Shown in pieces: positions 7,249-16,819 of a stretch of DNA of 55,105 nt (position 1 is its first letter; each line of letters starts with the position of its first letter). This DNA is from a virus. The notes under the pieces are model-generated. The model had not been told where the DNA came from and made no database searches. It saw only the letters and a program-made list of their open reading frames with translations. The translations under genes were made by a program, and so were the position numbers. The DNA is taken from UHGV virus genome UHGV-0308106. One strand, written 5' to 3'.

Positions 7249-7501
7249 GATGTTCTCCAGTTTTTCTGAGTGAACTTCGCTGGTGGTGCCGCGGCGCTGA
7301 TCTTCACGGTTGAGCGTTTTAACTCTGCAATTCACCACCGCGAAGCTCACTCTGTGCTTTGCCCTTGTCGCCAGGCTGGCGGAACGTTTCAAACCTACTG
7401 CGCGTTAATCTCACCACCTCATTCCGGTCTTCGTATGCCCCGGACGGCTTCTTCGTGGGCGTCCTGCTTTGGTGGTTGTGTTGATGGAGTAATTAAACAC
7501 A

Positions 7502-7540
7502 ATGTTTATTTGCGTGTCAACATAATGAGTGTTTTTATAT
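7502..7540 (-). promoter_or_regulatory. PL-like early-left promoter with operator motifs
   Basis: The minus strand reads TTGACA (7525-7530), a 17-nt spacer, then TTTAAT (7502-7507). CATAATG/ACAATGT motifs shared with the PR region overlap it. Confidence 0.6.
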
Positions 7541-7632
7541 AAACAAAAAGTTTAGTTGGTTGCGCTCGTTGGCACGAGTAGTATGTTTTATGGTCTATTT
7601 TGTGGTTATAAAAAAATCGATGAGGGTGAGTT

Positions 7633-7839
7633 ATGGATCGTGACGAACTGGAAGAAGACCGCGCAGCGTTTATTGCGGGGGAGATTGGTGGCGCAGTTGT
7701 CAGTCTGATAGCTAACGGGATTGTGATCAGCCGCGATGCGATTGTGGATAGTCTAGAGGCTAAGCGCAGGGTAGTGGGAAACGTCATTCACAAGTGGGTA
7801 TTGCGGGATGCGGTTGCTATGGTGAGAAAAGGGCAATAA
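7633..7839 (+). CDS. Hypothetical 68-aa protein
   Basis: A GAGGGTGA ribosome-binding site precedes the ATG. The ORF ends at a bidirectional terminator. Confidence 0.6.
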   Translation: MDRDELEEDRAAFIAGEIGGAVVSLIANGIVISRDAIVDSLEAKRRVVGNVIHKWVLRDAVAMVRKGQ

Positions 7840-7868
7840 AAAACCCAGTTCGGTAACTGGGTTATTGC
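7833..7868. terminator. Bidirectional rho-independent terminator
   Basis: AACCCAGTT-cggt-AACTGGGTT hairpin flanked by an A-run and a T-rich tract, between convergent genes. Confidence 0.7.
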
Positions 7869-7869
7869 T

Positions 7870-8295
7870 TTATTCAACAGATGATGGGGGGGTCGGTGCT
7901 TTCTTAAAGATCGACCACTGAGAAATGTAGGTCAGCAACCTTGAGCTTAACTCGAGTTCTTTTCGTAATATTTCGTCATAACGTTTTTTTGCTGCTTGCA
8001 TGGTCGCATCACTAGCGTGATTGTCATCCATAATGATCTTTAGCCTTTTCTTTTCTCGGCTTGAGCATATTGTAAATAACAGACCTGTAAATGACATTCC
8101 ACCAAAATCCTTTAACGTTTTGATTACAAAAAGAAGAATCAAAGACAGAAAAGGAACAGATCTGTAGGCCCAATCACGAAACTCACCGTCAGGAAAGAAG
8201 ATAGGAATAGCATCTGTAGCATAACCACATATGAGGGAGACAATTAGAAAAGGTAGTCCATTTTTAGCTACATTTTTAACGTTATCGTTAGCCAT
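7870..8295 (-). CDS. Membrane protein (about 3 TM helices plus a C-terminal charged helix); third gene of the repressor-linked cassette
   Basis: Hydrophobic segments LPFLIVSLICGY, VPFLSLILLFVI and FTGLLFTI. Either the ATG at 8295 (preferred) or the one at 8328 could be the start. AT-rich. Confidence 0.7.
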   Translation of the reverse strand: MANDNVKNVAKNGLPFLIVSLICGYATDAIPIFFPDGEFRDWAYRSVPFLSLILLFVIKTLKDFGGMSFTGLLFTICSSREKKRLKIIMDDNHASDATMQAAKKRYDEILRKELELSSRLLTYISQWSIFKKAPTPPSSVE

Positions 8296-8671
8296 GATTT
8301 TTTCCCGAGAACGATTTCGAGTCAACATGTAACTTTTGTGTTTTGACTACATAATACGCAAATCCAATCTTAACTAACCAATAAGCTACTGGTATGAGTG
8401 CTGCGTAAAGAGGGATATAGTACATAACCTTACCTCCTGTTAACCACACTATAACACCTAGCATCACTATTAGCGCGACAGAAAATGCTTTCAGCCCAAC
8501 ACAGCTATCAGGATGTGAAACACTGTTCCTTAGCAACAATATCCTGGATTCATCAAGTGTGTAAGGAATATCGCCAACATGATTTTCGATTTTTGGGAAG
8601 GTCTCAAATACTTCAACCCGATCAATCGAAATAATTGAGCTTGATTGATGATCTAAGCAAACTGCAGCCAC
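8288..8671 (-). CDS. Membrane protein (soluble N-terminal domain plus 2 TM helices); second gene of the cassette
   Basis: GTG start 2 nt after the upstream stop. TM segments are AFSVALIVMLGVIVWL and IPLYAALIPVAYWLV. Confidence 0.7.
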   Translation of the reverse strand: MAAVCLDHQSSSIISIDRVEVFETFPKIENHVGDIPYTLDESRILLLRNSVSHPDSCVGLKAFSVALIVMLGVIVWLTGGKVMYYIPLYAALIPVAYWLVKIGFAYYVVKTQKLHVDSKSFSGKNHG

Positions 8672-8673
8672 TG

Positions 8674-8997
8674 TTATCCCTCTCGAACCTTTAGTGATAC
8701 TCGGTTAGCAGCAAATGTGGCAATGAAACCACATTCTACACATATAACAGGGAATGCCCATATACCTCGGCCAGCTGAATGAGGTAGAGGAAGGGTAATT
8801 ATTGCAGGATAGTCTTGACTATCTTCTCGTGGAGGAACTCCCCAAAGCGTATGCTTACAAAGCGGACAGGCCATCTCGCCATGTTTTTCTTCGAGGCGTT
8901 GAAAATAATCTCGAAATTCTTGTCTTGATATTGATAGCGTCAATGCTGTTGTATTGACACTTTCCTGACTTTTTTCTTCTTCAACCTGTTCGCCCAT
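8674..8997 (-). CDS. Zinc-ribbon protein (CPLC...CVEC); first gene of the cassette
   Basis: Two CxxC pairs. ATG at 8997; the ORF track begins at an upstream TTG at 9009. Confidence 0.65.
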   Translation of the reverse strand: MGEQVEEEKSQESVNTTALTLSISRQEFRDYFQRLEEKHGEMACPLCKHTLWGVPPREDSQDYPAIITLPLPHSAGRGIWAFPVICVECGFIATFAANRVSLKVREG

Positions 8998-9108
8998 CTC
9001 AGCTCTCAATATAATGATAATTAACTGGTAAGTGAATTTTGCATATCGTTAAGATGTATCCCATTGGTACAGAAACATCTGAGGGGTAAGTAGCTTTTAA
9101 CTACCGTG

Positions 9109-9504
9109 CTACTCACCATCCCCCTTAATCCGCCGTCCCATGTACTTGGCGTACAGTTCATCGAGTTCTTTCAACCGTAGAGATACGATCCGCAACATGT
9201 TCTGTTGTTCTTCTTCGTTTGGGAGTTGATTATAGAGTTCCAACAGTCTCCGTTCGTCGTGTCTCAAACCGTCCTTAGCATCCACGTCCTGACCTAGAAC
9301 CCACTCAAGACTTACGCCTAGCGCATCGGCAAGTTTTATTGCTGAGCTTTTTCCTATCGCTCCTCTGACAAACCAGTTGTTGACTGATTGTGCGCTCACA
9401 CCACAGATTCTCGCTATATCCGCTTTGGATATGCGCTTCTTCTCGATGATTTCATTTAACCGCCGAACCTGCGGGTTATCTGTTTGGTGTGTGTTTTTTC
9501 TCAT
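9109..9504 (-). CDS. XRE-family HTH prophage repressor (CI/RacR functional analog, no S24 peptidase domain)
   Basis: HTH reads ISKADIARICGVSAQSVNNWF. Divergent from the cro-like gene across an operator region. No SD sequence before the ATG. Confidence 0.85.
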   Translation of the reverse strand: MRKNTHQTDNPQVRRLNEIIEKKRISKADIARICGVSAQSVNNWFVRGAIGKSSAIKLADALGVSLEWVLGQDVDAKDGLRHDERRLLELYNQLPNEEEQQNMLRIVSLRLKELDELYAKYMGRRIKGDGE

Positions 9505-9538
9505 ATATCAAGATTCTAAACTAAAAGTTTATCGCCTC

Positions 9539-9580
9539 AACATTCATAATGTTGACTTGAACATAAACATAATGTTTAAT
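9539..9580 (+). promoter_or_regulatory. OR/PR region: PR promoter and palindromic operators
   Basis: TTGACT (9552-9557), a 17-nt spacer, then TTTAAT (9575-9580). Palindromes AACATTCATAATGTT (9539-9553) and AAACATAATGTTT (9565-9577). Confidence 0.65.
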
Positions 9581-15129: not shown

Positions 15130-15266
15130 CATTTGAATCCTGTTTTTCCGATCACCTCCGCGTTCGCTGGCAGCGGCTTCGCTTATACCACTTTCCCGGC
15201 TCTGTGCTAACGGACTACCGGATACTGAAGAATTACGTGAAAACTTATGCTGGAGAAGCGCTATGA
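15126..15266 (+). CDS. ylcG: YlcG-like small protein
   Basis: Hand-translated 46 aa: [50 protein letters not shown] overlaps at both ends. Confidence 0.6.
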
Positions 15267-16045
15267 ACCTTGAAAACACAGTGAAATACCACTTCGCTAA
15301 ATCCACACTGATTAGCGATTCTCCGCGCGCTACCGCCTCCGATTCACTGACCGGTACCGACATAATGGCTGCCATGGGCATGACGCAGGAACGCGCCGCA
15401 ATGGGTTACAGCGCCTTCCTCGGCAAGATGGGCATAAGCAATAACGACCGGGATCGGGCGATCGGTCTGCTGGCTGAGTACGCGATGACAAAATGCGACA
15501 AGGTTGCCGCACTGCGTAAGCTCGGTGCCGCGGTTAAACCTCAGGTGATGCACCAGTTGGCCACCTTCGCTTTTGAGGACTATTCCCGCAGCGCTGCCAG
15601 CGTGAAGCAGTGCGATTGTTGTGACGGTCAGGGCTTCATTGAGGCTGACGTGTTTACCAATAAATTCCGTAAGCCAGAAGGGAAAATGACCGTGTCCGGG
15701 ATGGTGAAGGTCAAAGAATCCATCAAAGTGCTATGCAAAAAGTGTAATGGCTCTGGTGTGGTTAGTGCTTCTTGCAGTGATTGCCATGGGCGCGGCAAGG
15801 CAGTGAACCAGGCTCTTACTGAGAAACAGGGCGTTCCTGTTCTGGCTGACTGTAAGCGCTGCGGAGGGCGTGGGTATGAACGACTTCCGTCGACTGAAGC
15901 CTATGCTGCTGTATGCCAGATTACTGACGCCATTAGCCTGGACACCTGGAAAAAGTCTGTTAAGCCATTCTACGACCTGCTGATCACGAAATTTGATATC
16001 GAAGAGTCCTGGGCCGAAAAACAGCTTAAGCAGATAACGCGGTAA
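15263..16045 (+). CDS. Late antiterminator Q-family protein with four CxxCxGxG zinc-finger repeats
   Basis: Lies after rusA and before the lysis genes. Zinc-finger repeats: CDCCDGQG, CKKCNGSG, CSDCHGRG, CKRCGGRG. Confidence 0.8.
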   Translation: MNLENTVKYHFAKSTLISDSPRATASDSLTGTDIMAAMGMTQERAAMGYSAFLGKMGISNNDRDRAIGLLAEYAMTKCDKVAALRKLGAAVKPQVMHQLATFAFEDYSRSAASVKQCDCCDGQGFIEADVFTNKFRKPEGKMTVSGMVKVKESIKVLCKKCNGSGVVSASCSDCHGRGKAVNQALTEKQGVPVLADCKRCGGRGYERLPSTEAYAAVCQITDAISLDTWKKSVKPFYDLLITKFDIEESWAEKQLKQITR

Positions 16046-16249: not shown

Positions 16250-16819
16250 ATGAATAATCTACCCGATGATTACTTTTTGGATGCGGACGACGAACTCGTT
16301 GCTTTTCTGGAGAAGCAGGGCGAGGATTGTATACGCGAAATTCACCAGTCCAACGCACTAAACAAAGAAAATGGCCAGAAGTTATTGAGTATACTCATTG
16401 CTGGCGTGGGCTCGTCATTTTTGTTATTAACGCAACGTACAGGTTTTGATTACCTCACCGCTGGAATGTCTGTTTTTTTAGTCTACTGGGCAATGTGTGC
16501 GGCTTATCTTGTTCGCTGCGTCCTCGTTGTAAGGTCACGAGCTCTCGTGTCATCGACACCCTATGCGCTTTACCATGATGGCTATAAAGGGTTTACTGAA
16601 GATGATTACACTGGTTTTGAGTCGAAAGGATTTTCAGGAAAGCGTTCAACATTGAACGTCTTGCGGCGCTACCGGCTTGCGGATTTAACCAGAATGGCTG
16701 AAATGAGTAAAAAAGAGAATGCCAGAATAGGCCGAGAACTAGAAAGGGTAAGGATCGCTACAATCCTCACCCCTGTTTGTGCACTTGTAATCTCAGTACT
16801 TACTTACCTTTTTTTCTGA
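16250..16819 (+). CDS. Membrane protein moron between Q and the lysis genes
   Basis: 189 aa with 2 central and 1 C-terminal hydrophobic helices. GAGGTTGGGG ribosome-binding site. AT-rich. Confidence 0.7.
   Translation: MNNLPDDYFLDADDELVAFLEKQGEDCIREIHQSNALNKENGQKLLSILIAGVGSSFLLLTQRTGFDYLTAGMSVFLVYWAMCAAYLVRCVLVVRSRALVSSTPYALYHDGYKGFTEDDYTGFESKGFSGKRSTLNVLRRYRLADLTRMAEMSKKENARIGRELERVRIATILTPVCALVISVLTYLFF

Follow-up and report, generated by a model that had tools for sequence, protein, structure and literature searches.

In phage lambda, the rexA and rexB genes follow the repressor gene cI, and their products (RexAB) cause abortive infection with membrane depolarisation upon infection. The slot co-expressed with the repressor has been the source of RexAB and later of BstA, and most of the cargo carried there is uncharacterised. 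T4 Imm, HK97 gp15 and P22 SieA block the DNA entry of other phages and do not kill the cell. The concept of prophage defence hotspots was described for P2/P4 prophages and for BstA, encoded downstream of the BTP1 repressor (PMC9122126, PMC8585504).

The window (the whole stretch of 55,105 nucleotides analysed, UHGV virus genome UHGV-0308106) is an E. coli Rac-like lambdoid prophage, including a left arm with integrase, RecT, a 1129-aa RecE, YdaE and Kil, and a right arm with Cro/YdaS-like, YdaT/CII-like and O/P replication genes. Between both arms, three minus-strand genes (g1, g2 and g3) fill the interval from the repressor stop to an intrinsic terminator (Table 1). An earlier note on this DNA had described three tightly packed genes directly behind a CI-like repressor and on its strand, which was corroborated by the open reading frames, by RefSeq (107-, 127- and 141-aa genes annotated likewise in a 100 % identical E. 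coli chromosome), by the 2 nt separating the g1 stop from the g2 start and by the 8-nt overlap between g2 and g3 (ATGGCTAA). The location of the first gene was right, but the segment end given for it (9009) corresponds to an upstream in-frame TTG, and the ATG start of g1 places the end at 8997 on the minus strand. The AT-richness reported for the segment is real (GC of 0.40 in the cassette versus 0.52 in the window; GC3 of 0.25-0.35 in the cassette genes versus 0.51 in the repressor), and the terminator was rightly called bidirectional.

Table 1 Coordinates of the cassette and of the surrounding immunity region in the window.
Feature	Position	Strand	Characteristics
OL-like operator cluster and PL-like promoter	7492..7554	.	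Palindromes at 7494-7508, 7517-7530 and 7540-7554; putative function
PL-like promoter candidate	7520-7492	-	TTGACA at 7520-7515, 17-nt spacer, TTTAAT at 7497-7492; near-consensus, read directly from the sequence
Intrinsic terminator, bidirectional	7842..7863	.	9-bp stem, scores on both strands; ends the repressor-g1-g2-g3 unit
Replaceable cargo segment	7847..9109	-	Covers the cassette, its upstream spacer and the larger part of the terminator
g3, 141 aa	7870..8295	-	Two TM helices; start overlaps the g2 stop
g2, 127 aa	8288..8671	-	GTG start; N-domain and TM hairpin
g1, 107 aa	8674..8997	-	ATG start; predicted four-Cys zinc ribbon, cytoplasmic
Spacer between repressor and g1, 111 nt	8998..9108	-	Without terminator; part of the swapped unit
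Immunity repressor, 131 aa	9109..9504	-	HTH_3 (2.9e-8), Phage_CI_repr (1.6e-5); phrog_8 and phrog_4
PRM-like promoter candidate for the repressor	9540-9513	-	TTGAGG-16-TAGAAT; overlaps the right palindrome cluster
OR-like operator cluster and PRM-like repressor promoter	9517..9578	.	AAACATTATGTTTA-type palindromes at 9517-9530 and 9564-9578; putative function

The cassette resembles lambda cI-rexA-rexB in that it is located downstream of the repressor and co-oriented with it, between OL and OR and with a terminator at its end, and in that it combines a soluble component with membrane components. It differs from rexAB in having three genes instead of two, and in the size and topology of the products: RexA is a cytoplasmic protein of 279 aa, whereas g1 has 107 aa; RexB has 144 aa and four TM segments, compared to the two firm TM segments present in each of g2 and g3. 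As a general-knowledge comparison, the cassette shares with SieB (lambda/P22), P22 SieA, HK97 gp15 and T4 Imm the presence of small prophage-encoded inner-membrane proteins; unlike it, these are single proteins without a zinc-ribbon partner, and the one compared in sequence, lambda SieB, is unrelated. The likeness to the P2/P4 hotspots and to BstA is that one fixed position in the prophage, between conserved flanks, takes interchangeable cargo; the differences are the phage group (Rac-like/lambdoid), the slot, the unrelated proteins, and a cargo absent from PADLOC.

Palindromes of the AAACATTATGTTTA type were found at three sites in 7494-7554 and two in 9517-9578, compared to a single weak match elsewhere in the 55 kb. 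As these operator-like palindromes bracket the repressor and the cassette, the latter lies within the immunity region (the OL-OR interval), as rexAB does in lambda. The PL-like promoter overlaps the left palindrome cluster and faces kil, ydaE and recE (leftward), and the repressor gene is divergent from the Cro/YdaS-like and YdaT/CII-like genes. The number of promoter-like sites was not above that of shuffled sequence; the weak promoter-like site detected in the spacer (9036-9008) was no better than those obtained from shuffled sequence, and the spacer itself is not conserved among homologous cassettes. From the repressor through g3, the minus strand has a single terminator-like site, that at 7842-7863, and none separates the repressor from g1; the Rfam search gave no RNA family near threshold. 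With no terminator in between, transcription from the repressor promoter most likely runs on through the cassette, which would then be expressed in the lysogen. Silencing of this AT-rich cargo by H-NS may occur, which would count against lysogenic expression. At the other end of the unit, a GC hairpin followed by a T-run was found directly after g3 in all 10 homologous cassettes examined. The repressor of the window (9109-9504, minus strand) is short, with an HTH only and without the S24 autocleavage domain, so that induction of the prophage presumably depends on an antirepressor or takes some other route. Cassette relatives were found behind both short HTH-only and LexA-like repressors.

The segment carrying the cassette is replaceable. 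In the sister prophage L002, homology to the window ends at 7846 and resumes at 9110 (repressor stop), with flanks 96-99 % identical, and the slot holds other cargo in L002, L003 and L053, behind repressors at least 98 % identical in DNA. The segment thus has the conserved flanks, unrelated inserts, atypical composition and own terminator of a moron inserted in a cargo hotspot. The alternative cargos include a 149-aa soluble protein with a 136-aa coiled-coil protein bearing a C-terminal TM segment, and a 101-aa soluble protein with a 217-aa coiled-coil/TM protein. The two-gene cargos are located at L002 3465-4327 and L003 3458-4422; one of the proteins ends in a long (AP)n repeat, and their matches were weak (XhlA/SlyX/holin-like) except for a strong one to phrog_5820 (no assigned function, E 1.1e-45). 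In E. coli WEM25 (L053 2065-3454), the genes located behind the same repressor encode the small membrane protein YoaK, HicA/HicB and an acidic 141-aa protein.

Homologues are scarce: a collection of 5.8 billion proteins contains 6, 13 and 17 clusters (90 % identity) for the three proteins, and these belong to Klebsiella, Kluyvera, Cedecea and Enterobacter. The alignments of the three proteins have 34 to 41 invariant columns each, the pairwise dN/dS values of g1, g2 and g3 are 0.03-0.22 (dS being saturated), and all three open reading frames were intact in eight of the eight divergent loci tested; g1, g2 and g3 are real genes under purifying selection and not chance open reading frames. Their order was kept in all the loci found (E. 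coli, Klebsiella, Kluyvera, Cedecea, Enterobacter and Yersinia-type phages), and it persists even in the Yersinia-type phages, where the identities fall to 42, 34 and 49 %. A repressor on the same strand precedes the cassette in every related locus with upstream sequence present, and its family varies (123-131-aa HTH or 212-251-aa HTH+S24). Between the repressor and g1 there is sometimes a tiny YoaK open reading frame (Cedecea, L004 5648-5746) or one extra gene (L035). The sequenced Escherichia phage PHB10 also carries the cassette, annotated as hypothetical proteins. The distribution is sparse: the cassette was present in 5 of 5426 complete E. coli genomes, and profile scans of the GTDB species representatives with g2 and g3 revealed no genome encoding either. 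These facts fit an accessory operon that the lysogen expresses and that selection maintains as a functional unit of three proteins. The rexAB-like position proposed in the earlier note is likewise sustained by the bracketing palindromes, by the lack of an intervening terminator, by the repressor located upstream in the related loci, and by the exchange of cargo, HicAB included, in this slot.

The protein g1 has an acidic N-terminus, one helix and, as had been noticed beforehand in this 107-aa protein, two CxxC pairs: CPLC at residues 44-47 and CVEC at residues 86-89. The four cysteines (C44, C47, C86 and C89) are the only invariant columns among 45 g1-family sequences. The AF2 model (pLDDT 71.7) has strands at residues 67-70, 78-86 and 92-96, positions which locate the second CxxC pair at the turn between the last two strands. 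Two conserved CxxC pairs at the ends of beta-hairpins are the features of a zinc ribbon, and metal binding by g1 is predicted. The 127-aa g2 has an N-domain of about 60 aa, predicted as cytoplasmic and including an invariant PKIENxxGDIPY, followed by two clear hydrophobic segments forming a TM hairpin with a 4-residue turn, in agreement with the two TM helices originally assigned to it. The hairpin turn is invariant (GGK-VMYYIPLY; family form LxGG(K/R)VMYYIPLY), basic residues flank the hairpin on both sides, from which an N-in/C-in topology is predicted, and the GTG start is matched by an ATG at the identical position in the homologues. In the case of g3, the length of 141 aa held, but the three TM helices initially counted were an overstatement: there are clear TM segments at residues 14-35 and 46-65, followed by a hydrophobic helix of 13 residues, too short for a firm third TM segment. 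Beyond it, g3 has a basic stretch (REKKRLK), a C-terminal helix of amphipathic character and a tail rich in Pro. The most invariant stretch of g3 is PxG(E/D)xR(D/E)WAYR. The most conserved parts of both g2 and g3 are the predicted periplasmic turns.

None of the three proteins had been recognised in the earlier note, and the remote-homology and defence-system searches gave the same outcome. Pfam and NCBIfam scans of g1, g2 and g3 revealed nothing above threshold, toxin and antitoxin domains included; PADLOC-DB v2 gave zero families at E values up to 1; sequence searches of the PDB with the cassette proteins gave no match; and the only match in PHROGs was that of the C-terminal zinc knuckle of g1 to phrog_4293 (E 4e-7), a phage protein family without known function, which is weak, partial and confined to 25 aligned residues. 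Fold searches gave nothing informative; in one of them, g1 matched MqsA with a non-significant E value of 0.3. The profile comparisons (hhalign) gave probabilities of 0.07-0.14 % for g1 and g2 against RexA, 1 % (g3) and 0.1 % (g2) against RexB, and 1.5 % and 0.2 % against lambda SieB; the identity of the cassette proteins as homologues of RexA, RexB or SieB was consequently rejected. No description of such a cassette was found in the literature searched, in which the three RefSeq accessions were not mentioned, nor were they present in the DefensePredictor supplements. Judged by their sequences, the proteins belong to none of the known prophage exclusion systems, although the slot and logic of the cassette are the same.

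The g1 family is wider than the cassette. A profile search among 1.84 billion representatives retrieved 46 clusters, nearly all of them stand-alone proteins of 84-117 aa. The loci of distant members were drawn from viral contigs, high-GC and Yersinia-type ones, and a single related match names a host, being a Pseudomonas syringae phage. Three partner arrangements were found: the PsA type, in which the g1-like gene is followed by genes for a protein of 141-150 aa (N-domain plus TM hairpin) and for a 107-109-aa membrane protein, the architecture of the window; the PsB type, with a single protein of 158-184 aa that combines an N-domain with a TM segment and a coiled coil; and the Yersinia type, with two soluble proteins of 90-105 and 124-135 aa, e.g. 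in the sequenced phage vB_YenM_30.14. The same-strand upstream gene was an HTH+S24 repressor in eight of the nine loci tested, and a Yersinia-type cassette (L011) and a canonical one (L034) have near-identical repressors upstream. When partner proteins were compared across the cassette types by HMM search, no homology was detected. The occurrence of distant g1 relatives behind CI-type repressors and with differing partners fits a shared cytoplasmic module combined with exchangeable effectors.

Three conserved genes located in the slot where lambda keeps rexAB make the cassette a candidate anti-phage system; such a role does not follow from position alone. Phage exclusion is the most likely role of the cassette in our judgement. 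The full reading, which we hold tentatively and give slightly less than an even chance, is that of a prophage moron operon in the immunity region, likely expressed in the lysogen by read-through from the repressor promoter, whose product excludes other phages. In this model, g1 would be a cytoplasmic zinc-ribbon sensor or adaptor which senses or relays a phage cue and binds g2 at its cytoplasmic N-domain; together with g3, g2 would form a small inner-membrane complex; and a trigger from the infecting phage would lead this complex to compromise the membrane, in a Rex-like abortive infection (the mechanism that we prefer), or alternatively to block genome entry. The lysogenic expression, the protein-protein contacts, the anti-phage role and the membrane damage of this model are what we infer from the locus.

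Entry block is a serious rival to a triggered pore, since conservation in both g2 and g3 is highest at the predicted periplasmic turns, a pattern that agrees with entry block no less than with a pore. Pure envelope superinfection exclusion, in which g2 and g3 would stop DNA entry at the inner membrane without killing and g1 would be an assembly or regulatory factor, is unlikely, yet it is the strongest of the competing explanations: the two proteins are small and most invariant at those turns, and the cassette lies in a region presumed to be expressed in the lysogen, but known entry blockers have no conserved cytoplasmic zinc-ribbon partner, there is no homology to SieB, and the soluble g1 partners of the Yersinia type, lacking a TM segment, cannot act at the membrane. 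We consider improbable a toxin-antitoxin-like addiction module that stabilises the prophage, with toxic membrane proteins neutralised by g1 or g2. The presence of HicA/HicB in the same slot of strain WEM25, the tight translational coupling of g1, g2 and g3 and the loose resemblance of g1 to zinc-binding antitoxins (at the non-significant fold score given above) are consistent with it, whereas Pfam, NCBIfam and PADLOC gave no toxin-antitoxin family and an equal conservation of three genes is atypical of type II modules. Toxin-antitoxin activity and abortive infection are not mutually exclusive, so that this explanation overlaps with the preferred one.

The association of the g1 family with CI-type repressors across very different phages, while the partners change, would also be expected if g1 worked with the repressor as an accessory of the lysis-lysogeny switch, e.g. 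with g2 and g3 sensing the envelope or membrane to modulate induction or establishment. There is little probability in this proposal: a requirement for lysogenic expression would account for the linkage just as well, and the switch does not need g1, since sister prophages with a repressor about 98-99 % identical in DNA lack it and carry unrelated cargo. A comparably small chance is left for lysogenic conversion apart from phages (e.g. tolerance of stress or bacteriocins, or altered envelope physiology). Such roles are, as general background, frequent among prophage morons, and two of the three proteins are in the membrane; on the other hand, no similarity to known conversion, immunity or transport families was found, and the rarity, the patchy strain distribution and the turnover of cargo, including the type II toxin-antitoxin pair HicA/HicB, fit conflict systems better.

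A broader proposal, possible but doubtful, is that the g1 zinc-ribbon family marks a new modular class of repressor-coupled phage modules, a new prophage-borne abortive-infection family in which a sensor/adaptor expressed with CI is combined with interchangeable effectors. The effectors would be of three kinds: a TM-hairpin protein accompanied by a small membrane protein, one protein with TM segment and coiled coil, or a pair of soluble proteins. The class would extend over temperate phages of Enterobacterales and high-GC phage contigs. The main value of the locus is in this g1-centred modular family as a concrete and cheap experimental lead. The cassette is a compact (1.26 kb), directly clonable candidate, with a conserved three-gene synteny and unrelated to catalogued systems; should it prove anti-phage, it would contribute a new system acting at the membrane, along with naturally occurring sensor/effector swaps from which the triggering of such systems could be dissected. 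Otherwise, it would still have to be explained why the g1 family is so tightly linked to CI repressors.

Several other genes are worth recording. The 124-135-aa partner of the Yersinia-type cassettes (L011 4297-4979 of vB_YenM_30.14; L037, L040-L042) has a conserved WWHYH(I/V)G...D(R/K)TSE...HY...LDYHPPF and belongs to phrog_5954 (no assigned function); it had no match in Pfam, NCBIfam, PADLOC or the PDB, and it is possibly an enzymatic or toxin-like effector. Family scans of the Yersinia-type and high-GC partner proteins and of the alternative cargo gave just function-less PHROGs and weak coiled-coil/holin/spanin noise. Within the OL-OR interval of the window, a 68-aa soluble open reading frame (7633-7839, plus strand; phrog_3975, no assigned function, E 1.4e-33) is convergent with the cassette, and the two have the terminator in common. 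It is 96 % conserved in DNA in the sister prophage L002, a different 64-aa open reading frame takes its place in L003, and its absence beside the cassette in the Klebsiella and PHB10 loci marks it as a backbone gene rather than part of the cassette; the stretch 7633-7839 has a strong GC skew (+0.4). Further right, a predicted 189-aa membrane protein (16250-16819, plus strand; phrog_11870, no assigned function, E 5.6e-84) is encoded directly downstream of the Q-like antiterminator (15263-16045), that is, in the late-operon moron slot downstream of Q where Stx phages keep their toxin genes.
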